Positions 2,957 to 27,810 of a DNA stretch of 64,000 bases are shown here, one piece after another. The notes beneath the pieces are model-generated. The model saw nothing but the letters and a program-made list of their open reading frames with translations. It ran no database searches and had not been told where the DNA came from. Source of the stretch: an uncultured Aquimarina sp. (GTDB lineage: Bacteria; Bacteroidota; Bacteroidia; Flavobacteriales; Flavobacteriaceae); NCBI GenBank assembly GCA_947500545.1, contig CANMSO010000013.1, forward strand, positions 24,491 to 88,490, given 5' to 3'. A program made the position numbers and the translations under genes. The number at the start of each line of letters is the position of its first letter. The first letter of the stretch is position 1.

Positions 2957-3970
2957 TTATAAGATGTTAACTTCTGTTTCTAATTTAATCTCGAATTTTT
3001 CAAGAATTTTTTTTTGAATTTTCTCTGACAAATCAAGTATTTCTTTACCTGTTGCATTGTCATGATTCACCAAAACCAAAGCTTGTTTTTTATGAACTCC
3101 TGCGTCGCCCCATCGTTTTCCCTTGAAACCAGTTTGCTCTATAAGCCATCCTGCCGGTACTTTAATGTTGTTTTCATCAATTTTATAAAACGGAATGTCA
3201 GCATATGAATTTTGGAGTTTAGTAAACAAATCTTTAGATATAACAGGGTTTTTAAAAAAACTACCACTGTTGCCAATTTTTGAAGGATCAGGAAGTTTAC
3301 TTTTCCTGATTTGAATAACAGCCTCAGATATATCTTTAATAGTTGGAGAAGTAATGTCTTTGTCTGCTAAAGCACTTTCTATTGCTCCGTATTTTATATT
3401 GATCTGATGGTTTTTTTTACTTAGTTTGAATGTTACTTTTGTAATTATAAATTTGCCTTTGGCTTCATTCTTAAAAATTGAATTACGATATTCAAATTTG
3501 CAATCTTGATTTGAAAAAGTGTGTTTTTTTCCTGTATTTATTGCAATTGCTTCACACGATATTAAGGTGTCTTTAAGTTCTACTCCGTAAGCACCAATAT
3601 TTTGGATGGGTGCGCTTCCAACATAACCAGGTATAAGTGACAAGTTTTCTAATCCGCCATAATCATTAGTAATGCAATACTGTACAAAATCATGCCAATT
3701 CTCTCCTGCATTTGCAGATAGAACTACAAAATTTTCGGATTCTTCAATAACAGTAATTCCTTTTATAAGAATATGTATTACTAATGCATTAATGTCTTTT
3801 GTTAATAACATATTGCTACCGCCACTAAGAATAAACAACTCTTTGTTTGCGTATTTGAAAAGTGCATCTTTTAGCTCTGATTCTGAAGTAATTTTGATAT
3901 ACTCAGTTGCAGTAACATCTATTCCGAAGGTGTTGTGTTTTTTTAAAGACTTATTGTATTCAATTTTCAT
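2957..3970 (-). CDS. murB: UDP-N-acetylmuramate dehydrogenase
   Basis: HNTFG, GGSNML, APIQNIGAYG, GNSGSFFKNP, LETEV motifs. Confidence 0.97.
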   Translation of the reverse strand: MKIEYNKSLKKHNTFGIDVTATEYIKITSESELKDALFKYANKELFILSGGSNMLLTKDINALVIHILIKGITVIEESENFVVLSANAGENWHDFVQYCITNDYGGLENLSLIPGYVGSAPIQNIGAYGVELKDTLISCEAIAINTGKKHTFSNQDCKFEYRNSIFKNEAKGKFIITKVTFKLSKKNHQINIKYGAIESALADKDITSPTIKDISEAVIQIRKSKLPDPSKIGNSGSFFKNPVISKDLFTKLQNSYADIPFYKIDENNIKVPAGWLIEQTGFKGKRWGDAGVHKKQALVLVNHDNATGKEILDLSEKIQKKILEKFEIKLETEVNIL

Positions 3971-5160
3971 TAATCTTCATATTTTTCCAAAGCCAACCTT
4001 AATATATTTATCGCTTTTTTAAGATCTCTTCGATTTATAACATATGCTATTCTTACCTGATTTGTTCCCACATTTGGGCTAGAATAGAACCCCGAAGCGG
4101 GTGCTAACATAACTGTTTCTTTATTGAAATCAAATTTATCTAAAAGCCATTGTGCAAAATCTTCTGAATCTTTAACAGGTAATTCTGCAATGCAATAAAA
4201 AGCTCCTCTCGGCATAGAAACTTTTACCCCAGGTATTTCTTTAAGTCCTGCAACTAGTGTGTCTCTTCTAGCTTTGTATTTTGCAACGGTTTCTTTATAA
4301 TAAGATTCTGGAGCTTCTAAAGCTGCTTCACTTGCAATTTGGGCAAGAGTAGGAGGGCTTAATCTTGCTTGTGCAAATTTCATTGCTGTCTCGATAACAC
4401 TTTTGTTTTTGCTAACCATGCATCCTATCCTTGCACCACACATGCTATATCTTTTTGATACTGAATCTACAACAATGGCGTGGTCATCCAGACTCTTTTC
4501 TTGAAGAATTGAGTAATGCTCTGATCCATCGTAAACAAATTCGCGATAGACCTCATCAGATATTAAAAATAGATCATACTTGATAGCCAATTTAGCTAGT
4601 TGCTTAATTTCTTCCTTGCTATACAGGTATCCAGTAGGATTTCCAGGATTGCAAATCAAAATGGCTTTGGTTTTTTTCGTGATGAGTTTTTCGAATTCAT
4701 CGATTGAAGGTAGTGCAAATCCTGTATCTATACTAGAAATAACAGGAACAACCTTAACATTAGATTGGGTAGAAAAACTATAATAATTTGCATAAAATGG
4801 CTCTGGTACTATAATCTCATCTCCAGGATCCGTTATGCTGCCCATAGTAAAAATAAGCGCTTCACTACCACCTGTTGTTATCAGAATATCATCAGAAGAA
4901 ATTGTAATATCATGTTTAGCATAATAGCTAGCCAATTTCTTTCTAAAGCTTTCAAATCCAGCAGAATGACTGTATGCAAGAACATCTAGTTTATTATTTC
5001 GGACAGCTTCAATTGCCTCTATAGGTGTTTTTATATCGGGTTGACCTATATTAAGGCGATATATATGCTTGCCTTCTTTTTCTGCTTTTTCTGCAAAGGG
5101 AACCAATTTTCGAATTGGAGATTCTGGCATTGCTTTCCCTTTGCTTGATACTACTGGCAT
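3970..5160 (-). CDS. PLP-dependent class I/II aminotransferase (aspartate aminotransferase-like)
   Basis: LNIGQPD, CNPGNPTG, DEVY and SVSKRYSMCGARIG (PLP lysine). Confidence 0.92.
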   Translation of the reverse strand: MPVVSSKGKAMPESPIRKLVPFAEKAEKEGKHIYRLNIGQPDIKTPIEAIEAVRNNKLDVLAYSHSAGFESFRKKLASYYAKHDITISSDDILITTGGSEALIFTMGSITDPGDEIIVPEPFYANYYSFSTQSNVKVVPVISSIDTGFALPSIDEFEKLITKKTKAILICNPGNPTGYLYSKEEIKQLAKLAIKYDLFLISDEVYREFVYDGSEHYSILQEKSLDDHAIVVDSVSKRYSMCGARIGCMVSKNKSVIETAMKFAQARLSPPTLAQIASEAALEAPESYYKETVAKYKARRDTLVAGLKEIPGVKVSMPRGAFYCIAELPVKDSEDFAQWLLDKFDFNKETVMLAPASGFYSSPNVGTNQVRIAYVINRRDLKKAINILRLALEKYED

Positions 5161-17818: not shown

Positions 17819-19564
17819 TTACCTCAAAACCCTATACACAGGGTAACGCATATGAGCATTTTCGTAGTTGTCAGACTGCTTGTGAATCCAATCTAATTGT
17901 GCGTACCAATTGTTAGCAAAAACGGTGTCTTTTTTCTTTTCTTCAAATTTTGCCTTTAATTCTTTATCCTGAGTTAATAATTCAAGTGCTTTATCTTCCC
18001 AAACATATGGCGAAAACCCTTCTTTTTGTTGTAAAATAGTATCAAAAAAGTTCCAGTTGAAAAACGAATCCGGTGCCTCAGGCTCTAAAGTTTCCATAAG
18101 ATATCTAAACCCTTTTTGATCTGTAGGTATAATAATGTCTCCTTTTTTGAAAGTGATTCGCTCTCTACTTTTCTTTACAGAAGTTTTATAATGCAAGTAA
18201 TGCCCTTCATAAGGCGTTTTTCGACTTTTATATTCAGCTATATGATAAGTTTCAACGATCATGGTCGAATCTTTTTCCAAAGTGTTAAACTCGATTTGAT
18301 TCAGTTTTAATAGCTCAATCACATTCCACCACCCTTGCGGAATGATATAAGCTTTAGGAATAGTAATATCTGTTGTTGAAGTAAAATAATTTTGATATTT
18401 AACTTCTTTAGAATATGGTTTATCCTGATCATATTTGAGTCGTTTTGCTCCAGTAATTTTGCTGTCGATAAACGCTCCATCATAACCTTTGAAATTAAAC
18501 TTAGTAACTCGTGAAGTGTCAATTTTCCAATTTACGGCATACGTTCCTCGTTTGGTAATATCAGAAAATGCTTTTTCACGAAGGGATTTTATTTTCTCTC
18601 CATCTTTTTCAGTGATTTCAATCATAGATTTCATTAGTTCGTAGGTGCTTATAACTCTATCTTGATAAGGTTTTAACATGTGAGTTTCGACCATCATTCC
18701 CAGTGTATTCCAAAGGGTAGTATAGCCTGTTGAATATCTCGGTGAATCCATAAATTGTACCCAGCCTTTATCGGGTGTTGTACCCCAAACATTAACATAA
18801 GGAGTGATATCCCATTTTTTTGAGGCCAGTGAAGCTTCCAGTTGCGGATGCATTTCATTGTGTAAATAATTGCCTAAATCACTTCCCAGTTTATTATGTT
18901 GAGTAAATAAATGTGTTAAAGTGTATTGATAATCGGCACCATTGCTTACATGATTATCGATAAAAACATCTGGTTGCACCAGATGAAATACTTTGGCAAA
19001 AGCTTTGGCATTTTTGGTATCATTCTTTATAAAATCTCTATTAAGATCATAATTACGTGAATTTCCTCTAAAACCATATTCCTTTGGACCATTTTGATTA
19101 GTTCTCGTGCCAGAATTTCGGTTTAGAGCTCCGCCAATATTATATACAGGAATAGCAACAAGAACAGTGTTTTTAGGCATTTTTATTTCACCCTGAACAA
19201 GACCTCTAAACATCAACATTGTAGCATCAATACCATCGCTTTCTCCCGGATGTATACCATTATTGATAAGCAGAATTCTTTTGCTTTGTCTGATTTTGTC
19301 AAAATCAAATTCCCGATCAGGATTAAGTGTTACAATGTGTAAAGGATTTCCACTATCGGTCATTCCAATTTCCTTGATGCTTATTTCAGGATAAGCTTCT
19401 GCCAAGTTTTTATAATAAGTAATAACTTCAGGATAGGTTGGAGTTTCTGTTCCTTTGCTTTTTTCGAATGTAGTGGTGAAATCTATTTTGTTGGTGTTTT
19501 TCTTTTCAGTAGTGGTACAAGAAAAAACAGCTAGAAGGCTAAAAATGAATATAATTCTTTTCAT
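17819..19564 (-). CDS. M14-family zinc carboxypeptidase lipoprotein
   Basis: Lipobox LAVFSC; GIHPGE (HxxE), NYDLNRD, IDNH zinc ligands. Confidence 0.88.
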   Translation of the reverse strand: MKRIIFIFSLLAVFSCTTTEKKNTNKIDFTTTFEKSKGTETPTYPEVITYYKNLAEAYPEISIKEIGMTDSGNPLHIVTLNPDREFDFDKIRQSKRILLINNGIHPGESDGIDATMLMFRGLVQGEIKMPKNTVLVAIPVYNIGGALNRNSGTRTNQNGPKEYGFRGNSRNYDLNRDFIKNDTKNAKAFAKVFHLVQPDVFIDNHVSNGADYQYTLTHLFTQHNKLGSDLGNYLHNEMHPQLEASLASKKWDITPYVNVWGTTPDKGWVQFMDSPRYSTGYTTLWNTLGMMVETHMLKPYQDRVISTYELMKSMIEITEKDGEKIKSLREKAFSDITKRGTYAVNWKIDTSRVTKFNFKGYDGAFIDSKITGAKRLKYDQDKPYSKEVKYQNYFTSTTDITIPKAYIIPQGWWNVIELLKLNQIEFNTLEKDSTMIVETYHIAEYKSRKTPYEGHYLHYKTSVKKSRERITFKKGDIIIPTDQKGFRYLMETLEPEAPDSFFNWNFFDTILQQKEGFSPYVWEDKALELLTQDKELKAKFEEKKKDTVFANNWYAQLDWIHKQSDNYENAHMRYPVYRVLR

Positions 19565-19685
19565 GCATGTGCGAATAAGGTTTAAATATACTAAGTTTTA
19601 GAATTTATCGATCTTCTATAACGTTTTAGTTTGTGACTTGATTTAGATAGATATTCATTTTACTTGTCTTACTACAAAATAAACG

Positions 19686-19693
19686 TATTTTTG
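19686..19693 (+). promoter_or_regulatory. -7 box of the SulP gene
   Basis: TATTTTTG, 21 nt before ATG 19715. Confidence 0.6.
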
Positions 19694-19714
19694 CAGCCTC
19701 AAATACCATTGACT

Positions 19715-21313
19715 ATGACTGAGTTTGTAAGAAAAAGAGTGGCAAACGCCAAAAATGATATTTTATCGGGGCTAACGGTAGCGCTAGCTTTGGTGCCAGA
19801 AGCAGTTGCTTTTGCCTTTGTCGCGGGTGTTGATCCTTTGGTAGGGCTATACGCTGCATTTATGATTGGATTGATTACTTCAGTTTTTGGAGGCCGTCCA
19901 GGGATGATTTCTGGTGCTACAGGAGCATTAGCAGTGGTAATGGTAAGCTTGGTAGCCGAAGGAAATGCAATGGGAGCTCCTGGAGAAGAACTTGGCTTGT
20001 ATTATCTATTTGCAACGGTTATTCTTATGGGGATAATTCAAATGCTAGCAGGTGTTTTTAAACTTGGTAAGTTTGTTCGTTTAATTCCGCACCCGGTGAT
20101 GATGGGATTCGTAAATGGACTAGCGATTGTTATTTTTCTATCTCAATTGGGAATGTTCAAAGAATATGTGAACGGAGAAAAAGTATGGATGCAAGGAATG
20201 GGTCTATGGCTAACACTTGGATTAGTATTGCTAACAATGGCAATTATGTGGGGATTACCTAAACTAAAGGCAACTGCAAAACTCCCTGAAGCATTAATTG
20301 GGATTGCAGTAGTTTCGGCCATTGTGATTTTGGGCAAGTTAGATGTTGCCACCGTAGGTAGTTTTATTAAAGATGGAGGAGGGGAAGGTCTTAAAGGCGG
20401 ATTACCACAGTTTCAGTTTGATATTTTTAACAAAGTGCCTATGAGCTGGGAAACTTTCAAGTTTATTGGACCTTATGCTTTGATTCTGGCTGCAATTGGT
20501 TTAATTGAATCACTAATGACACTAAATCTGATTGATGAACTTACTGAAACTCGAGGGAACTCAAATAGAGAATGTTTAGCACAAGGTGGAGCTAATATTG
20601 TTACCGGTCTTTTTGGAGGAATGGGTGGTTGTGCAATGATTGGTCAATCTATAATCAATATAAAAGGAGGAGGTCGTACAAGACTTTCAGGTATTGTTGC
20701 CGCTGTAACACTACTGTTATTTATCTTATTTGCATCTGGACTGATCGAGCAAGTGCCTATTGCGGCCTTAGTTGGAGTAATGTTCATGGTAGTAATCGGA
20801 ACCTTTGCCTGGTCAAGTTTTAGAATCTTAAATAAAATACCTCTTACAGATGCTATTGTGTTAATAGCTGTATCTTCATTAACGGTGTTCTTTGATCTTG
20901 CGGTGGCGGTAATTGCAGGGGTGATTATGTCTGCATTGGCGTTTGCTTGGGAAAACGCCAAAAAAATTAGAGCAAGAAAACATATAAAAGAAGATGGAAC
21001 CAAAGTATACGAAATCTGGGGTCCATTGTTCTTTGGGAGTATACAAGCTTTTAATAGCAAGTTTGATGTTGCTAATGATCCAGAGAATGTAGAGATCGAT
21101 TTTATCGAATCTAGAGTGAGTGATCATTCTGCACTAGAAGCAATCTTTACCCTGGTTGGAAAGTATGAAGAAGCTGATAAAAAAGTTAGAATCAAGCATC
21201 TTAGCGAAGAATGCCAAGCATTAATGATAAAAGCTTCTCCTAGATTAGCGAACGTAATAGAACATGATGTAGATGATCCAAGATATCATGTAATGGCAAA
21301 AGCAATGCAATAA
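19715..21313 (+). CDS. SulP-family anion transporter with STAS domain
   Basis: LSGLTVALALVPEAVAFA, GRPGMISGATG, NRECLAQG, C-terminal GPLFFG STAS. Confidence 0.93.
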   Translation: MTEFVRKRVANAKNDILSGLTVALALVPEAVAFAFVAGVDPLVGLYAAFMIGLITSVFGGRPGMISGATGALAVVMVSLVAEGNAMGAPGEELGLYYLFATVILMGIIQMLAGVFKLGKFVRLIPHPVMMGFVNGLAIVIFLSQLGMFKEYVNGEKVWMQGMGLWLTLGLVLLTMAIMWGLPKLKATAKLPEALIGIAVVSAIVILGKLDVATVGSFIKDGGGEGLKGGLPQFQFDIFNKVPMSWETFKFIGPYALILAAIGLIESLMTLNLIDELTETRGNSNRECLAQGGANIVTGLFGGMGGCAMIGQSIINIKGGGRTRLSGIVAAVTLLLFILFASGLIEQVPIAALVGVMFMVVIGTFAWSSFRILNKIPLTDAIVLIAVSSLTVFFDLAVAVIAGVIMSALAFAWENAKKIRARKHIKEDGTKVYEIWGPLFFGSIQAFNSKFDVANDPENVEIDFIESRVSDHSALEAIFTLVGKYEEADKKVRIKHLSEECQALMIKASPRLANVIEHDVDDPRYHVMAKAMQ

Positions 21314-21354
21314 ATAAAACGTATATTTCGATTATAAATCGAATTAAATTATAA

Positions 21355-22113
21355 ATGGATATTCCTTTTGAGCCTATTGTTTTTGGTGTTAAAGTGAATA
21401 TCCATTTGGTTTTAGAGTATGCCGCTTTTTTTATCGGTTTTCGGTATTATATCTACTTAAAGAAGAATTCACAGGATGTAATATCATCATCTAATAGATT
21501 ATCAATAATTATAGGTGCAGTTTTCGGAGCCTTTTTTGGTTCTAGAATTGTTGGCTTTTTAGAGAACCCTATACTCTCATTCGGACCAGAATACCTTCTT
21601 TCTATACTTAACTCAAAAACTATTATGGGTGGACTTTTTGGTGGTTTACTTGGAGTAGAGTTGGCAAAAAAAATAATTAAAGAAAAACATTCTTCTGGGG
21701 ATTTGTTTACGTTTCCGATCATTTTGGGAATTATAGTGGGTAGATTAGGCTGCTTTTTATCAGGAATCAATGAGTTCACCTACGGAAAAGAAACTGGCTC
21801 TTTTCTTGGAATGGATTTGGGAGATGGTATAACAAGACATCCTATTGCACTTTATGAAATTATTTTCTTAATCACTTTATGGCTTTTTTTAAAACACATT
21901 CAGAAAAAGTCTATTTATAAAAGCGGGCTACTTTTTCAGTATTTTATGATTTTGTATTTTGTGTTTAGGCTTTTTATAGAATTCTTGAAACCTAATATAT
22001 TTTTGGTCTTAGGGTTAAGTAGTATTCAGTATTTATGTATCTTATGCTTGATTTATTATTGGAAAACAATTCGAGATACATTTTATGCCAACAAGAAACT
22101 ACACGTATTATGA
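21355..22113 (+). CDS. Divergent Lgt-family (prolipoprotein diacylglyceryl transferase-like) membrane protein
   Basis: About 7 TM; GRLGCFLSG, RHPIALYE and FRLFIEF correspond to Lgt motifs; KTIMGG stands where canonical Lgt has SFHGG. Confidence 0.85.
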   Translation: MDIPFEPIVFGVKVNIHLVLEYAAFFIGFRYYIYLKKNSQDVISSSNRLSIIIGAVFGAFFGSRIVGFLENPILSFGPEYLLSILNSKTIMGGLFGGLLGVELAKKIIKEKHSSGDLFTFPIILGIIVGRLGCFLSGINEFTYGKETGSFLGMDLGDGITRHPIALYEIIFLITLWLFLKHIQKKSIYKSGLLFQYFMILYFVFRLFIEFLKPNIFLVLGLSSIQYLCILCLIYYWKTIRDTFYANKKLHVL

Positions 22114-23479
22114 TTTTACATTAAGCTTATGTCCTACCTGTCTTAAAAGAATAGATGCTAAGATAGTTTTTGAAGAAGATAAAGTGTTTATGCTGAAACG
22201 TTGTCCAGAGCATGGTAGATCAAAAGTTTTGATTGCGGATGATATAGAATACTATAAGAGCATTAGAAATTATAATAAGCCTTCAGAATTTCCATATAAA
22301 TTTAATACGACTACAGATTATGGATGCCCTTATGATTGCGGACTGTGTCCAGATCATGAACAACACTCTTGTTTAACTATTATTGAAGTAACTGATCGCT
22401 GTAACTTAACTTGTCCTACTTGCTATGCTTCTTCATCTCCTCACTATGGGAGACATCGTTCTTTTGACGAGATTAAAAAGATGCTTGATACGATTGTTGA
22501 AAATGAAAAAGAACCGGATGTAGTACAAATTAGCGGAGGGGAACCAACTATACACCCCCAGTTTTTTGAAATTCTGGATTACGCCAAACAACTACCGATT
22601 CGACATCTTATGGTAAATACCAACGGAGTTCGTATTGCTAAGGATGTTAAATTCACAGAGCGATTGGCCGGATATATGCCAGATTTTGAAATTTATCTGC
22701 AATTTGATTCTTTACAAGAAGAAGTTCTAAAAAAATTAAGAGGAGAGAATTTAACACATATAAGAAAACAAGCTATACATAATCTTAATCAGTTTAACTT
22801 ATCTACAACTTTGGTGGTTACCTTGGAAAAAGGTTTGAATGATGATCAAATAGGAGAGGTTATTTCGTTTGCTACTAAACAAAAAAGTGTAAGAGGGGTT
22901 ACATTTCAACCTACACAAATTGCAGGTCGATTAGAAGATTTTGATGTGCAAACTAATAGAATAACATTAACCGAAGTAAGAAGAAAGATATTAGAGCAGT
23001 TTCCTATATTTGAATCTGATGATCTTATTCCTGTGCCCTGTAATCCAGATGCATTAGTGATGGGGTATGCGCTAAAAAATGAAGAAGGGATTTTGCCGCT
23101 TACAAGATATATCAATCCTACAGATTTATTGGATAATGGAAAAAATACTATTGTTTATGAGCAGGATGAAGAATTACACGGTAAAGTACTTGAACTTTTT
23201 AGTACGGGTAATTCTGTTGAAAGTGCCTCGGAAAACCTGAAATCCATTATGTGTTGCTTGCCAGAAATTGATGCACCCGATTTGGGTTATGATAACCTAT
23301 TTAGGATTATTATTATGCAATTTGTTGATGCCTATAACTTTGATGTTAGAGCGATCAAAAAATCTTGTGTTCATATTGTAAATAAAGATTACAAGATTAT
23401 TCCTTTTGAAACTATGAATTTGTTTTATAGAGATGATAAACAAGAATATCTAGAAAAACTAAGAAACGAAGTGATATGA
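22085..23479 (+). CDS. Radical SAM protein, tetraether synthase (Tes/MJ0619)-like architecture
   Basis: C16-x2-C19...C40-P-E-H43 N-terminal metal site, C81xxxC85xxC88xxH91 auxiliary motif, C106xxxC110xxC113 SAM cluster, SGGEPT, C-terminal SCVH...IIPF. Confidence 0.85.
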   Translation: MPTRNYTYYDFTLSLCPTCLKRIDAKIVFEEDKVFMLKRCPEHGRSKVLIADDIEYYKSIRNYNKPSEFPYKFNTTTDYGCPYDCGLCPDHEQHSCLTIIEVTDRCNLTCPTCYASSSPHYGRHRSFDEIKKMLDTIVENEKEPDVVQISGGEPTIHPQFFEILDYAKQLPIRHLMVNTNGVRIAKDVKFTERLAGYMPDFEIYLQFDSLQEEVLKKLRGENLTHIRKQAIHNLNQFNLSTTLVVTLEKGLNDDQIGEVISFATKQKSVRGVTFQPTQIAGRLEDFDVQTNRITLTEVRRKILEQFPIFESDDLIPVPCNPDALVMGYALKNEEGILPLTRYINPTDLLDNGKNTIVYEQDEELHGKVLELFSTGNSVESASENLKSIMCCLPEIDAPDLGYDNLFRIIIMQFVDAYNFDVRAIKKSCVHIVNKDYKIIPFETMNLFYRDDKQEYLEKLRNEVI

Positions 23480-23694
23480 TACTAAACACTATCTCTTTAG
23501 AAGGTGGAAATTACGATGCAATAATTTACTTAATTCTATTAATTCTTTTAGGACCACCAATATTCCTTGCTCTTATTGGAGTAATCCTATTCAAAACGCA
23601 ACATCGAAAGGCGGGTAAAGTATTTTTTATTCTCGCCGGAATATATCTTGTTGTAGGGTTAGGAATTTGCGGAGCTCTGATGGTTGGGTTTTAG
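23476..23694 (+). CDS. 72-aa two-TM membrane protein with a single C-terminal Cys
   Basis: ATGA overlap with the radical SAM stop; two hydrophobic helices separated by KTQHRKAGK. Confidence 0.75.
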   Translation: MILNTISLEGGNYDAIIYLILLILLGPPIFLALIGVILFKTQHRKAGKVFFILAGIYLVVGLGICGALMVGF

Positions 23695-24512
23695 ATTCTT
23701 TCTAAAAGGTACATAGTCTCGTTCAGGATTTCATTTTTGGTACTGATTTCAATATTTGGGGCATAAATTTTTGATAGCTCAAATTCATCTGTTTTTTCTT
23801 TTATTGTATATCCATCTATTGAAGAAAAATAAGAATGGGGTATGGTTTGATGTGAAAAAGAGTCATTAGTGTCATTATTACTGTCAAAATAATGTAATAA
23901 ACGGTGGTATACTTCTGTGTTTTCTACTTCTGGCAAGTAGGTTACACTACCCGTAATATCTCCAGGATTTTGTAATCCTTTAAAAATTTGAAATAATTTA
24001 TTCGTCGTTGAGCGGTCTAAAAAGAAGAATACACCTTCGATTAGAATAAACGTAGGTTCCTTTTTGATTAGTGGTTTCAGTGTTTTTATAATTTGATCTG
24101 CAGTATTTTGATTAAAATCCACAGCTACGTACTGAACATCTCGATAGGGTAATTCTCCTTCTTTAGTCCAATTGTCGATTTTCTCTTTTTTATAATCAAT
24201 GATATCTTTTTTATCAATCTCGATTGTAGAAACAGAATCGTTAAACGAAAATTGATACATACTAAAACCTGACCCAAAATTAATCAATGTACCACCCCCA
24301 TTAGTATCAAAAAATGATTTCATATGCTCATAGAAAAAACGATTTCTTATGCTGTGTAAAATGGCTTCATGCTTAGAGATGGTATCCAGAATAGATGGAA
24401 TTATAGCATCTGTTTGTTGATTGTTCCATAATTTTGCAAAATTATCTTTACTTATTTCTTGGTAATGAGACCTGTAAGTTGATACTACGAAGGCGGTTTC
24501 ATGAACTTTCAT
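23691..24512 (-). CDS. Class I SAM-dependent methyltransferase (LCM/TcmP-like)
   Basis: ETAFVVSTYRS, RNRFF, LINFGSGF, VAVDF, ILIEGVFFFL. Confidence 0.78.
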   Translation of the reverse strand: MKVHETAFVVSTYRSHYQEISKDNFAKLWNNQQTDAIIPSILDTISKHEAILHSIRNRFFYEHMKSFFDTNGGGTLINFGSGFSMYQFSFNDSVSTIEIDKKDIIDYKKEKIDNWTKEGELPYRDVQYVAVDFNQNTADQIIKTLKPLIKKEPTFILIEGVFFFLDRSTTNKLFQIFKGLQNPGDITGSVTYLPEVENTEVYHRLLHYFDSNNDTNDSFSHQTIPHSYFSSIDGYTIKEKTDEFELSKIYAPNIEISTKNEILNETMYLLERI

Positions 24513-24642
24513 AAATTGGTTATAGATTAATTTCTAATCTAAAGTATTAAAATAGTAGATTTTATACGCCTTATTTTTGAATCTATAAAGTAAGTTTTAA
24601 GTTAACTTTATGAGTCATTGATATTGATTAAAGACATTCTGT

Positions 24643-25101
24643 TTATGCTATAGCTACAAAAATATCTACTTCGGCATCCTTAGGGTTTAGAGCATCTTCA
24701 CCGTATACTTCGAAATCTGTAGTATAGGTTCTTTTTAAATCGGTTTCCCATATAGTTACCCATTTATCATAAATTACCCCTTTGGTGATATCCCCTTTGG
24801 CGGTAAATCGAGAATAGGTGTTTTTTTCGATATGGATGCCAGTCATACCAGTTGGTATTGTGTCTAAGTTTTTAACTTTGCAACCCAATATTGTAGTATA
24901 TCCTTCGGTATGATCACTTTCGTAATCCGTATACAAGGCATAGATAGTGTCTTCAAGCCTGTTTGGGATTTGGTCAATCATATTTTCAGACATAAAAGTA
25001 TTCCATAGAGCAGGAATATCCTTTTCAAATTGATCATTTTTTTTAGTGGTTCGTACAGAAATCCCTATTACATGAAAAGGGTGAAGCTTTATTTTTGCCA
25101 T
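24643..25101 (-). CDS. GyrI-like effector-binding protein
   Basis: VIGISVRT, YALYTDYESD, RTYTTDFEVY; no HTH. Confidence 0.85.
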   Translation of the reverse strand: MAKIKLHPFHVIGISVRTTKKNDQFEKDIPALWNTFMSENMIDQIPNRLEDTIYALYTDYESDHTEGYTTILGCKVKNLDTIPTGMTGIHIEKNTYSRFTAKGDITKGVIYDKWVTIWETDLKRTYTTDFEVYGEDALNPKDAEVDIFVAIA

Positions 25102-25200: not shown

Positions 25201-26394
25201 TTATATAAACCCTAGTTTTTCAAAGTCTTTATTTAAAATCGTTTGATCATTTACATTTAACCAATTGTTTAATACCGATGCATAAACACTCCTGAAATCT
25301 ACAGAATATTTGATATCTCCGTTATTGTCTAAATCAGAAAGATTTGGTAATTCGTTATACACACCTGCTTTTTTCAAAGAACCACCTATGACAATTACGT
25401 TATTTGCTGCTCCATGATCGGTACCCCTGCTACCATTTTGTTTCACACGACGTCCAAATTCTGAAAAAGTAAGAATCAAGGTGTCCTTAAATCGATCATT
25501 CGCTTTTAAGTCTTTAACCAAGGCGCCAACAGAATCTGAGTATATTTTGAGCAATCGATCCTGGCTGTTTAATTGATTTACATGACTATCAAAACCTCCT
25601 AGTGAACTGTAAAACACTCTTGTTTTTAAGCCAGAGATTATAAAATCAGCAATTGTTTTTAGGTGCTTGGAAAATGGGTTTTGAGGGTATTCAGTATTGG
25701 TTTGATGAATCTTTGACGTTTCATAAATGTATGAAGCAGAGGAATAGGTTTCTAACATCGTTTTGTATAGATATCCCTGATTGTCTTCATCTAACATTTC
25801 TTTTTGAGTGTTCTTAATTATGTTCTTGAAAAAAGGTTCTCTTGTTGTTCGGTAGAGTTGGTTGGGATCGGAAGCAGCAATACCATTCATGGTGTTGCCT
25901 TTTAAGGCTAATGACAATGAATTATCTATTTCTATTGCTTGGTACGGGTGCTGGCAATTGGCATCCAGGTATCTGCCTACCCAACCTGTTGATAGATACT
26001 GATTGGTATCACTTGCCGTTTGCCAGATATCCGTACTTCTAAAATGTGATCTATTAGGATTAGGATACCCTACATTATTAATGATAGATACTTCTCCCAA
26101 GTCATATAGTTTTTTGATTTCTTTTAGGTTGTCATTAAAAGCTAAATCATCGGTAATTTTTAGTGTTCGAGATTCTTTTTTAGCAATAAATGGCCTTGCG
26201 CTATGATAGATATCGTTACTAATAGGGATAATACTATTTAATCCGTCATTTCCGCCAGAAAGTTGAATAATGATCACATTTCTATATCCCGATAATTGTT
26301 CTGGTGTTAGAAATTCCATTCCTTTTAAGAAAGAAGGAATCATCGTCATTCCTGATGCAAATACTGATTGTTTTAAAAAATCTCTCCGTTTCAT
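25201..26394 (-). CDS. DUF1501-family protein with Tat-like signal
   Basis: MKRRDFLK; QLSGGNDGLN, SHFRS, GGFDSH, FSEFGRR, GTDHG. Confidence 0.88.
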   Translation of the reverse strand: MKRRDFLKQSVFASGMTMIPSFLKGMEFLTPEQLSGYRNVIIIQLSGGNDGLNSIIPISNDIYHSARPFIAKKESRTLKITDDLAFNDNLKEIKKLYDLGEVSIINNVGYPNPNRSHFRSTDIWQTASDTNQYLSTGWVGRYLDANCQHPYQAIEIDNSLSLALKGNTMNGIAASDPNQLYRTTREPFFKNIIKNTQKEMLDEDNQGYLYKTMLETYSSASYIYETSKIHQTNTEYPQNPFSKHLKTIADFIISGLKTRVFYSSLGGFDSHVNQLNSQDRLLKIYSDSVGALVKDLKANDRFKDTLILTFSEFGRRVKQNGSRGTDHGAANNVIVIGGSLKKAGVYNELPNLSDLDNNGDIKYSVDFRSVYASVLNNWLNVNDQTILNKDFEKLGFI

Positions 26395-26406
26395 GGTCTT
26401 ATGGTT

Positions 26407-27810
26407 TTAGCAAAGTTGATATTCTGGTAGGCTCAATAGTTCGATAACAAAATTCTTGGTATCCTTTGCTTCTAATTTAGATACGATGACTTTGGCAGTT
26501 TCAGAAAGACTTGGTTGCAACATGAAATTTGTAAGTTCAGATTTGTTTTTTTGTTCCAAATCATCTAAAAATACTTGCCAATTGGGTATGGCTTTTACCT
26601 TCCTTTGAAGTTTTGACTTTATCTTTTTATAGACTTGTTGTCTGATAATCGTATTCTCTGGCATATCTCCTTTTTCATGCCATTCTATTACTCCGCTATT
26701 CAGCGTTAATGAAACTAATTTTAAACGAAGCATCAGTGTAGAGTTGTCTATCCATGCCCTTCCTCCTGTCCAGCCTGCTACATTTGGAGGAAAGAACAAC
26801 ATTTGATTTAGCTTTTTTTGAAGATAGAGCAATACCTTGGGGTCTTCATACTGTACTTGAAAAGACTTGCTAAGTCCTACTATTAGTTCGATAGGGGATT
26901 TAATCTTGGTTCCAATATTATTAGAAGAATAAAACCAATCACTCTTAAGAATCGCTCTTACTAGAGCTTGAAGATCGTAATTAGCATCATAAAAAATCGT
27001 TGTAAGATATTCAATGTGATTTTTATTAATGGTTTCATTCACAAAATAAGAATATATTTTCTCGGTGAGATATCGCGCAGTTTGTTTTTTTTCAAGAAGT
27101 ATTTTGATGACATCTTCCCCGGTGAAACTCCCTGTTTTATCAAAGATCGTTTTGGTACCATAATCATGATGGTTTTTTCTAAAAACAAATGTTCCATTCT
27201 TATTAAAATTCCAACCGGTAAATGCTCTGGCAGCCTCTTTGATATCATTTTCCGTATACCCATTATCTCTTCCCAGAGTAAATAACTCCATTACCTCACG
27301 GGCGAAATTTTCGTTAGGGTGGTCTTTTCTATTTTGCTTGTTGTTTAAAAATAGTAGCATTGCAGGAGATTTGGATACTTCCATAAGCATATCTCCAAAG
27401 TTCTCTAAAGCATGTTCACGAATGATGTTGTTAAGATGAATACATGCACGTGGGGTTCTAAGTCGTACGGCAAAATGATCATGAAAAAACAATGTCATTT
27501 TCTCACGTAACACTTGATCAGTGTCTATTAATTGTTTTAACCAAAGCGTATTTAACTCGGACATTTTTTTATTCCGGAGTTGTCGTAATTGTTTTCGTTC
27601 TTCTCTGGATAGCTCTTTAGAATTTTTTTCTAATGCCCCAAAACTCATAGATAATGGGGCGCTCTCCTTACTTTCTTCAAATAGTCGATCAATGATTTGA
27701 GTTTTTGAGAGGACTCTAACCGTTTCAAGTTCTGAGGCAGAAATTCCAAACCCGATTCTCCAATAGAGATGTTGAATTTGTTTGTCTGATAAAGAGGTAA
27801 TCATAATCAC
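26407..27810 (-). CDS. DUF1800-family protein
   Basis: LREKMTLFFHDHF, PAMLLFLN, PNENFAREVMELFTLG, PPNVAGW. Confidence 0.9.
   Translation of the reverse strand: MIMITSLSDKQIQHLYWRIGFGISASELETVRVLSKTQIIDRLFEESKESAPLSMSFGALEKNSKELSREERKQLRQLRNKKMSELNTLWLKQLIDTDQVLREKMTLFFHDHFAVRLRTPRACIHLNNIIREHALENFGDMLMEVSKSPAMLLFLNNKQNRKDHPNENFAREVMELFTLGRDNGYTENDIKEAARAFTGWNFNKNGTFVFRKNHHDYGTKTIFDKTGSFTGEDVIKILLEKKQTARYLTEKIYSYFVNETINKNHIEYLTTIFYDANYDLQALVRAILKSDWFYSSNNIGTKIKSPIELIVGLSKSFQVQYEDPKVLLYLQKKLNQMLFFPPNVAGWTGGRAWIDNSTLMLRLKLVSLTLNSGVIEWHEKGDMPENTIIRQQVYKKIKSKLQRKVKAIPNWQVFLDDLEQKNKSELTNFMLQPSLSETAKVIVSKLEAKDTKNFVIELLSLPEYQLC

Follow-up and report, generated by a model that had tools for sequence, protein, structure and literature searches.

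The closest described relative of the enzyme considered here is the radical S-adenosylmethionine (SAM) enzyme GDGT-MAS, or Tes (MJ0619; Protein Data Bank (PDB) entries 7TOL and 7TOM), whose C-terminal [Fe4S4]C cluster is bound by three Cys ligands and the labile Met439, and in which the first lipid radical is caught as a C-S adduct (PMC9433317; reviewed in PMC13459092). Tyr459 is strictly conserved in 1000 archaeal GDGT-MAS homologues, as is Met439 in archaeal Tes, and GDGT-MAS binds bacterial as well as archaeal phospholipids through a head-group site that is non-specific (PMC9433317). Bacterial GDGT-MAS homologues have been noted, with their role described as unknown (PMC9433317), and bacterial Tes homologues have been proposed, and never confirmed, as synthases of brGDGTs, the branched glycerol dialkyl glycerol tetraethers (PMC8941075; PMC11868695), while sequences from the Fibrobacterota-Chlorobiota-Bacteroidota (FCB) group are present without comment in a published tree. 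The second system of relevance is the prolipoprotein diacylglyceryl transferase Lgt. In the E. coli enzyme, phosphatidylglycerol is bound and activated by R143 and R239, and the lipobox is proposed to bind at the HGGL motif, which contains the essential residue H103; the active site is open on the periplasmic side, and its cavity is 20 Å deep with a hydrophobic cytosolic floor (PMC4728403). Here we analyse a stretch of 64,000 nucleotides from an uncultured Aquimarina sp. (assembly GCA_947500545.1, contig CANMSO010000013.1, positions 24,491 to 88,490; hereafter the window), in which an open reading frame (ORF) at 22085-23479 (+) encodes a Tes/GDGT-MAS-like radical SAM enzyme of 464 residues, flanked by overlapping genes for an Lgt paralogue and for a small membrane protein with a conserved Cys.

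The radical SAM enzyme of the window is a full-length bacterial homologue of Tes/GDGT-MAS that lies outside both Tes proper and TrsS by the curated cut-offs. Its reading frame starts with ATG and is the sole ORF at its coordinates. Residues 11-454 align by phmmer with the 7TOL chain of GDGT-MAS (E=4.4e-73; identity 31-32%), and an AlphaFold2 (AF2) model built on 99 diverse homologues (mean predicted local distance difference test (pLDDT) 92.4; predicted template modelling score 0.91) contains the four-domain layout of GDGT-MAS, namely the rubredoxin-like domain, the N-terminal cluster domain, the partial TIM barrel of the radical SAM core and the C-terminal domain. Low confidence is confined to residues 376-396, the loop that carries a pair of Cys residues (pLDDT below 50 at 380-396). 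When the model was compared with the PDB by Foldseek, 7TOM/7TOL were returned with a template modelling (TM) score of 0.83 (E=2e-41) and MoaA was the runner-up fold at TM 0.41. With MoaA at only 0.41, the enzyme cannot be assigned to some unrelated subfamily of radical SAM proteins, and its full-length homology and its fold bear out the kinship that the initial annotation had proposed from the sequence.

Within this fold, Pfam recognises Zn_ribbon_HMPTM at residues 8-51 (1.3e-20) and Radical_SAM at residues 100-263 (1.1e-24). The rubredoxin-like site C16-x2-C19...C40-P-E-H43 (22130-22213, +) aligns with C9, C12, C33 and H36 of GDGT-MAS, and the N-terminal auxiliary [4Fe-4S] motif C81-x3-C85-x2-C88-x2-H91 (22325-22357, +) aligns with C73, C77, C80 and a His of the same enzyme (PMC9433317). 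Both are unchanged in 81 Bacteroidota orthologues and in a wider clade of 123 sequences (42-71% identity) that includes Planctomycetota, Verrucomicrobiota and Acidobacteriota. The radical SAM motif C106-x3-C110-x2-C113 (22400-22423, +), which lies inside the Pfam Radical_SAM match, is unchanged in the 81 Bacteroidota orthologues, among which all 14 Cys residues of the enzyme are invariant. The motifs first listed for this ORF (CxxC...CPEH, CxxxCxxCxxH, CxxxCxxC, MCCLP, KKSCVH and IIPFE) are all found in its translation, and the Pfam matches and the invariance of the Cys residues show that they did not arise by chance.

The designation as tetraether-synthase-like needs to be narrowed, however. 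The full-length homology to Tes and the TM score of 0.83 uphold it, whereas the family models place the enzyme below the cut-offs for Tes and for TrsS: NCBIfam model NF045702 (Tes) scores 296.4 bits against a cut-off of 450 and matches residues 12-320 only, and NF045646 (TrsS), which matches over the full length and is the best-scoring curated model, gives 332.6 bits against 490. Among true members, P0181 and P0228 (TrsS) reach 545 and 583 bits and P0246 (Tes) reaches 610 bits, while none of ten representatives near the window enzyme reaches either cut-off. An exhaustive HMMER search of 1.84 billion cluster representatives gave 669 relatives with E<=1e-30. We placed 96 full-length representatives and 7TOL in a neighbour-joining tree, in which the window enzyme groups with P0121, P0122 and P0123, far from the clade of Tes and TrsS; TrsS representatives sit beside Tes proper and retain its Cys triad (CC-x-H...PFC). 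TrsS, a radical SAM (seleno)protein that was reportedly defined by Haft and Tolstoy in 2025, is characterised here from model scores and one locus. Identity to the nearest other locus is 97% for the enzyme of this Aquimarina, a genus of the Flavobacteriaceae.

The most pronounced departure from GDGT-MAS lies at the C-terminal cluster site. The initial annotation had given CCIH...IPFC as the C-terminus of Tes and had considered the site altered in the window enzyme; 7TOL does read RCCIHY...IIPFC at the aligned positions, and the alteration proves to be more radical than was first thought, since all three co-conserved Cys residues are gone and a new invariant set is present. In the phmmer alignment, 7TOL ...SCMHF...RCCIHY...IIPFCTYN stands opposite ...IIMQF...KSCVHI...IIPFETMN of the query. 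Because the chain numbering of 7TOL is shifted by +20 from the native numbering, Met439 corresponds to M411 (23315-23317, +) and Tyr459 to I431. The text of the structural paper does not name the three Cys ligands of [Fe4S4]C, and we derived their positions (323, 427 and 442 in the query) from co-conservation in 100 sequences. In the 67 sequences that bear the 'PFC' Cys, 7TOL included, Cys occupies position 323 in 66, position 427 in 66 and position 442 in all 67. In the 32 sequences of the branch to which the window enzyme belongs, the triad is jointly replaced without exception, by A/R/T/S/N at 323, S/E/T at 427 and D/S/E at 442, and the window enzyme itself has A323, S427 and E442.

What stands in place of the triad is itself conserved. 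C319, in the sequence PVPCNPDA (23039-23041, +), lies four residues ahead of the lost canonical ligand position A323, and C428 lies one residue from its old counterpart, within a remodelled region S427-C428-V-H430-I431...P-F-E442 (23363-23410, +). Both are invariant in the 81 Bacteroidota and the 123 wider-clade sequences, and on the whole triad-lost branch they occur in 24 (C319) and 22 (C428) of the 32 sequences. The clade-specific pair C390-C391 (MCCLP; 23252-23257, +), which sits in the sole low-confidence loop of the model, is present in 100% of the Bacteroidota sequences and in at least 90% of the wider clade, and M411 is kept in at least 98% of the Bacteroidota and is merely the majority residue in the wider clade. 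As the old triad has gone and a different conserved set of Cys residues is in place, we believe that the C-terminal site has been rewired rather than degraded. The sequence conservation would be consistent with C319, C428 and one of C390/C391 rebuilding a predicted three-Cys-plus-Met cluster at the old place, with M411, or else E442, as a putative fourth ligand.

Upstream, the radical SAM gene is overlapped by 29 nt by the gene of an Lgt paralogue of the 'GRxGC' type (21355-22113, +; 252 residues; Pfam LGT 3.3e-21), which scores 40.6 bits against the cut-off of 118.9 of the Lgt equivalog model TIGR00544. This arrangement, with the paralogue directly upstream and overlapping, recurs in all 80 Bacteroidota loci that we compared, which belong to at least five classes and derive from Flavobacteriaceae, Crocinitomicaceae, Cyclobacteriaceae, Flexithrix, Chitinophagaceae, Saprospiraceae, Sphingobacteriaceae and Riemerella. 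Across these loci the Lgt paralogue is 45-97% identical and the radical SAM enzyme 72-97%, which for the latter points to a strongly selected function. The upstream paralogue aligns with E. coli Lgt 5AZB, and in 86 radical-SAM-linked paralogues aligned to the E. coli protein, G142, R143, G145, E202, Y235 and R239 are retained throughout and E243 in 84. In the same set, N146 is replaced by Cys and H103 by a hydrophobic residue (F/L/V/I) in every case, and Y26 by Glu in 81. With the Arg pair kept and H103, N146 and Y26 changed, the paralogue retains the lipid-handling core and has altered residues on the acceptor side. The C-terminus of Lgt is cytoplasmic, a topology compatible with the attachment of a cytoplasmic Fe-S enzyme to this end by gene fusion.

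Such fusions do exist. A search with P0123 returned at least 57 distinct 90%-identity clusters of single polypeptides of 656-825 residues that combine LGT, Zn_ribbon_HMPTM and Radical_SAM, some of them labelled Tepidisphaerales or Verrucomicrobiota, and, judged from their domain content, these are a classical gene-fusion link between the two proteins. Genes for LGT also adjoin that of the radical SAM enzyme in L091, a Fibrobacterota genome, in Omnitrophota-type contigs (L084, L085), in a Pacearchaeota metagenome-assembled genome (MAG; L093) and in three unassigned contigs (L081, L083, L086), whereas LGT neighbours none of the four triad-keeping relatives sampled (P0131, P0142, P0160 and TrsS P0181, two of them on short contigs). 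The enzyme is coupled in translation to the Lgt paralogue in Bacteroidota and, in other phyla, fused to the C-terminal side of such a paralogue.

Downstream, the stop codon of the radical SAM gene overlaps the start (ATGA) of a gene for a small protein of 72 residues with two transmembrane helices (23476-23694, +), which has no Pfam or NCBIfam match and which we call the Cys-box protein. It ends in ...YLVVGLGIC65GALMVGF, so that the conserved Cys65 (23668-23670, +) is followed by a tail of seven residues. The box consensus, Y-L-[VLI]-[VI]-G-[LF]-G-[ITV]-C-G, is followed by 3-13, mostly 5-9, uncharged residues, and a small same-strand ORF with this box follows the radical SAM gene in 72 of the 80 loci by a strict rule and in 78 by a looser one, while just one match occurs among the 3355 remaining small ORFs of this DNA. 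Of the two loci that lack the box by the looser rule, one lies on a contig that stops 85 bp past the radical SAM gene. Each locus has one to three copies, in tandem when multiple, with a conserved core motif and a variable tail, and the Cys-box ending is retained in proteins of Mucilaginibacter, Saprospiraceae and Riemerella that are beyond the reach of BLAST. No large ORF with a Cys box was found in 1.14 Mb of window and loci, which argues that the mini-protein is a dedicated partner and not a sorting tag. The loop holds a mean of 2.97 Lys and Arg residues, compared with 0.13 at the N-terminus and 0.09 in the tail; by the positive-inside rule, the Cys is predicted where the last helix reaches the outer face, just as a lipobox Cys stands behind the helix of a signal peptide.

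Outside the Bacteroidota, a clear C-terminal box is found in L083 (...SFGLCAYRF), in L084 (...LFGFCMFMINF) and in the Pacearchaeota contig (...VGFGACFIGVAGFF). A looser box, read by eye, is internal in L081, L086 and L091 and is followed there by one more helix that ends in Arg/Lys, a position that weakens a purely C-terminal, CaaX-like model of lipidation, clipping and methylation. In the NCBI annotation the mini-protein is absent, the radical SAM gene is a 'radical SAM protein' and the Lgt paralogue a 'prolipoprotein diacylglyceryl transferase (family protein)'. The Lgt paralogue and the Cys-box protein lie outside the ORF to which the initial annotation was confined, and together they shift the question from a free membrane-spanning lipid to a lipid handled by a lipoprotein-type transferase.

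On this evidence we propose, with a confidence that we would describe as evenly balanced, that the ORF encodes the cytoplasmic radical SAM subunit of a three-gene membrane module which, together with the Lgt paralogue and the Cys-box mini-protein, modifies a lipid tail. Such a module would build a membrane lipid that is modified and probably linked to protein, and we hold any specific product with much less confidence than the proposed module. Mechanistically, the Lgt paralogue would bind a phosphoglycerolipid and move its diacylglyceryl moiety to the thiol of the Cys box on the outer side of the inner membrane; the radical SAM enzyme would dock at the cytoplasmic C-terminus of the paralogue. 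Before this lipid is transferred, or afterwards, the 5'-deoxyadenosyl radical could take a hydrogen from the end of one of its acyl chains, and a C-S bond or, as in Tes, a C-C bond could then be made with the aid of the rebuilt cluster of C319, C428, C390 or C391, and M411. The expected product would be a tail-cross-linked lipid, macrocyclic or membrane-spanning, held covalently on the mini-protein, and not a free GDGT-type lipid. In its most general form, which we put forward tentatively and consider somewhat unlikely, the proposal would describe a widespread prokaryotic pathway, spread over Bacteroidota, Fibrobacterota, Planctomycetota, Verrucomicrobiota, Acidobacteriota, Omnitrophota and one DPANN archaeal MAG, in which a dedicated Lgt paralogue joins a glycerolipid by a thioether to the Cys of a dedicated mini-protein and a docked, Tes-derived enzyme welds its tail to a second tail, giving a protein-anchored macrocyclic or bolaform lipid.

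Several observations weigh against this proposal. Triad-lost sister lineages (e.g. P0130, P0144) have one or two C-terminal Cys residues, too few for a cluster, and any C-terminal cluster in this group of sequences is at present putative. The triad-lost lineage P0130 moreover has no LGT neighbour, and the 185-residue protein encoded upstream is soluble and not Lgt-like, so that the link to Lgt is not universal on this branch; the contrast with triad-keeping relatives, for its part, comprises four loci only, two of which are short contigs. The loss of H103 may mean that the paralogue is not a transferase, and the I/T/V residues at position -1 of the box are atypical for a lipobox. The Cys is predicted on the outer face and the radical SAM enzyme is cytoplasmic, which makes direct contact between them impossible. 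The function of the module is predicted from sequence and structural models, and we know of no cross-linked or diabolic-type lipid from Bacteroidota.

The first alternative to be weighed is that the enzyme is a synthase of free membrane-spanning lipids, which joins the omega-ends of two iso-branched acyl chains from free phospholipids through a re-ligated [4Fe-4S]C cluster to give diabolic-acid or brGDGT-precursor lipids, with the Lgt paralogue acting as a dock or lipid presenter and the mini-protein playing a structural role. The complete GDGT-MAS fold, the retained labile Met and four conserved C-terminal Cys residues able to rebuild a cluster would all fit this explanation, as would the iso-C15:0 in which Bacteroidota are generally known to be rich. 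Tes also binds ester phospholipids (PMC9433317), and the literature names bacterial Tes homologues as candidates for making brGDGTs (PMC8941075), although their role in membrane-spanning lipids is still unconfirmed (PMC11868695). We nevertheless consider it unlikely, since the entire canonical Cys triad and Tyr459 have gone and since neither the invariant Cys of the mini-protein nor the catalytic Arg pair of Lgt, kept in 86 of 86 paralogues, would be explained by it. Membrane-spanning lipids are, as a matter of general knowledge, also unreported from the well-studied aerobic Bacteroidota.

A further alternative takes the mini-protein, and not a lipid, as the substrate of the radical SAM enzyme. 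As in the maturation of RiPPs (peptides synthesised ribosomally and modified post-translationally), the enzyme would introduce a thioether, a C-C cross-link or another modification near the C-terminus, and the Lgt paralogue would add a lipid, yielding a lipopeptide or lipoprotein. The one to three tandem copies beside the radical SAM gene, each with a conserved core motif and a variable tail, do resemble RiPP precursors, and ICMT-family methyltransferases at some related loci are reminiscent of CaaX-type processing. The non-Tes PDB matches closest to the radical SAM enzyme, SkfB and SuiB, are peptide maturases as well, yet they match the core domain only. Likewise, SPASM/twitch models of peptide maturases match the radical SAM core domain only, at 25-60 bits and far under their cut-offs, while the C-terminal half superposes on GDGT-MAS and the protein has a lipid-enzyme fold over its whole length. 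Pfam and NCBIfam scans found no SPASM or RRE domain in the enzyme, neither a protease nor an exporter recurs around the gene across the 80 loci, and the Cys is predicted across the membrane from the enzyme, all of which makes this explanation decidedly unlikely.

Alternatively, the C-terminal cluster may have been lost altogether, leaving an enzyme that performs a single hydrogen abstraction on a lipid, for desaturation, hydroxylation-type rebound, cyclisation or a methylthiolation-like insertion of sulfur, with C319 and C428 serving as redox or hydrogen-donor residues and with no coupling of tails. This would account for the absence of the triad across the whole branch, on which C319 and C428 are the only broadly common C-terminal Cys residues, and for the disorder of the CC loop in the AF2 model. 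It sits poorly with the retention of M411, whose only known role is that of a cluster ligand, and with the conservation of four Cys residues in the clade of the window enzyme, and it has no specific precedent in the GDGT-MAS fold; we therefore regard it as very improbable. Finally, the legacy annotation as a 7,8-dihydro-6-hydroxymethylpterin dimethyltransferase, which lives on in names given by the Joint Genome Institute (JGI) and in the Pfam name 'HMPTM', has a negligible likelihood, given that Bacteroidota are generally known to make no methanopterin and that membrane-enzyme partners ill suit such a role, and it is rejected because the founding member MJ0619 was shown to be GDGT-MAS, with a pocket that cannot take a pterin (PMC9433317).

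That obsolete name still stands on many homologues, LGT fusions included, and is an annotation error that is propagating; the same applies to an Aquisphaera homologue named 'subtilosin biosynthesis protein AlbA'.

The related loci differ in the company that the radical SAM gene keeps. Next to the triad-keeping P0131 (L087, 2671-3438) and P0142 (L094, 7428-8210), a class I SAM methyltransferase of CMAS/UbiE-like type follows, with frames that overlap or nearly abut, which may represent a different conserved pairing with another function. The TrsS gene P0181 in L092 is preceded by an overlapping second radical SAM gene (4042-5004; 320 residues) and flanked by DUF7479 and a URO-D-family gene, and has no LGT nearby, while the triad-keeping P0160 is accompanied by an ICMT-family gene (L088, 140-646). 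On the Omnitrophota-type contigs, ICMT/PEMT-family membrane methyltransferases (L084, 5406-6439; L085, 3601-4634), together with DUF4395 in both, either separate the radical SAM gene from the LGT gene or adjoin the two, and suggest further tailoring of the lipid or of a Cys carboxyl in some lineages. In the Pacearchaeota MAG (JACPXY010000056.1; L093), a Pfam-LGT gene at 3268-4038 overlaps the Tes-like radical SAM gene, which is followed by a Cys-box protein. The presence of LGT in this DPANN MAG could be due to horizontal transfer or to a binning error, and it touches the statement in a 2025 paper that no archaeal Lgt homologues are known.

Around the three genes of the window, the neighbourhood is of narrower distribution. 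A convergent LCM-family methyltransferase gene (23691-24512, -; PF04072 / TIGR00027-like) overlaps the end of the mini-protein gene with its stop codon by 4 nt; it is syntenic within Aquimarina only, in 32 of the 80 loci, and carboxyl methyltransferases of the ICMT family occur in related modules (L084, L088). We considered SulP, the LCM methyltransferase, GyrI-like, DUF1501 and DUF1800 as possible parts of the module and rejected them, as they are syntenic only within Aquimarina. The adjacent DUF1501 (397 residues, Tat-like N-terminus) and DUF1800 (467 residues) genes at 25201-27810 (-), a common and uncharacterised duo, are syntenic in about 20 Aquimarina loci, and a protein of 581 residues with a lipoprotein-like N-terminus (…LLAVFSC), encoded at 17819-19564 (-), has no Pfam match at E<=0.001 and is conserved in 35 loci. 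The spacer of 41 nt (21314-21354) that separates the gene of the SulP transporter from that of the Lgt paralogue holds TATATTTCG, which we take to resemble the Bacteroidota -7 promoter element TAnnTTTG. A promoter and terminator scan of 19400-24800, with a tool that does not cover Bacteroidota promoters, gave nothing above the shuffled expectation, and a transcript search found no RNA run, the single DNA-type run sharing 9% of the query words. The overlapping reading frames are the basis on which we predict co-transcription of the module genes.

These results have a bearing on how bacterial Tes homologues are read. Such homologues are counted in metagenomes as markers of brGDGTs or membrane-spanning lipids (PMC8941075; PMC11868695), and if the large, deep branch without the triad does act together with a lipoprotein-type transferase on a dedicated mini-protein, these inferences would be wrong for that branch. 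A Cys-linked lipid modified by a radical SAM enzyme would, if confirmed, be a new class of modification and the first protein-linked product of tetraether-synthase chemistry, and its bacterial use would be hidden from ordinary lipid extraction. The carriers are abundant marine and soil bacteria and include fish pathogens such as Tenacibaculum. Lgt is moreover an antibiotic target, and a natural paralogue in which N146 has become Cys, H103 is lost and the Arg pair is kept is informative on the mechanism of Lgt itself.

Set against the known systems, the enzyme of the window shares with GDGT-MAS/Tes the fold, the rubredoxin-like site of three Cys and one His, the N-terminal site of the same composition, the radical SAM motif and the equivalent of Met439, and it keeps several of the residues that contact 5'-deoxyadenosine in GDGT-MAS (the equivalents of Arg210, Gln268 and Arg275, judged by eye from the phmmer alignment). 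It differs from Tes in lacking an insertion of about 20 residues after 'PVP', in the replacement of the triad and Tyr459, in the new Cys residues 319, 390 and 391, and in its obligatory pairing or fusion with a Cys-box protein and an Lgt paralogue, an association that Tes does not have; its host, moreover, is a flavobacterium with ester-linked acyl lipids. With TrsS it shares the superfamily branch of bacterial Tes relatives, whereas TrsS keeps the triad and, at the one locus seen, lacks LGT. The upstream paralogue shares the RHP..LYE segment and the core residues with E. coli Lgt (5AZB/5AZC) and has a shortened head domain, and its predicted acceptor is, in place of the N-terminal lipobox used by Lgt, a Cys that stands behind the last helix in a dedicated mini-protein.

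Two further groups of systems resemble the module in part. Mss of Thermotoga and Thermoanaerobacter is, like the enzyme in our proposal, a radical SAM enzyme proposed to couple bacterial acyl tails (Sahonero-Canavesi 2022). By its published description, Mss is not homologous to Tes, as the genomes that carry it, which belong to anaerobes, had no Tes homologues detected in them, and Lgt or Cys-box partners of Mss have not been reported. The MYXO-CTERM/myxosortase, CaaX and archaeal AliA/AliB systems carry, as the mini-protein does, an invariant Cys beside a terminal transmembrane helix, for which Lgt-like lipidation is predicted (PMC11980579). In those C-terminal systems, however, the Cys precedes the helix and belongs to a tag on many cargos, whereas in the mini-protein, a dedicated carrier, it follows the helix, and the module has a radical SAM partner in place of a conserved CPBP protease. 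In our literature search, which did not extend to the TrsS-defining paper, we found no description that connects a Tes-like or other radical SAM enzyme with Lgt or its paralogues, with a lipobox or with a small Cys protein. We conclude that the window enzyme has a known fold and probably a related chemistry, combined with a C-terminal cluster site that differs from that of Tes and with a set of partners previously undescribed in the literature that we searched.

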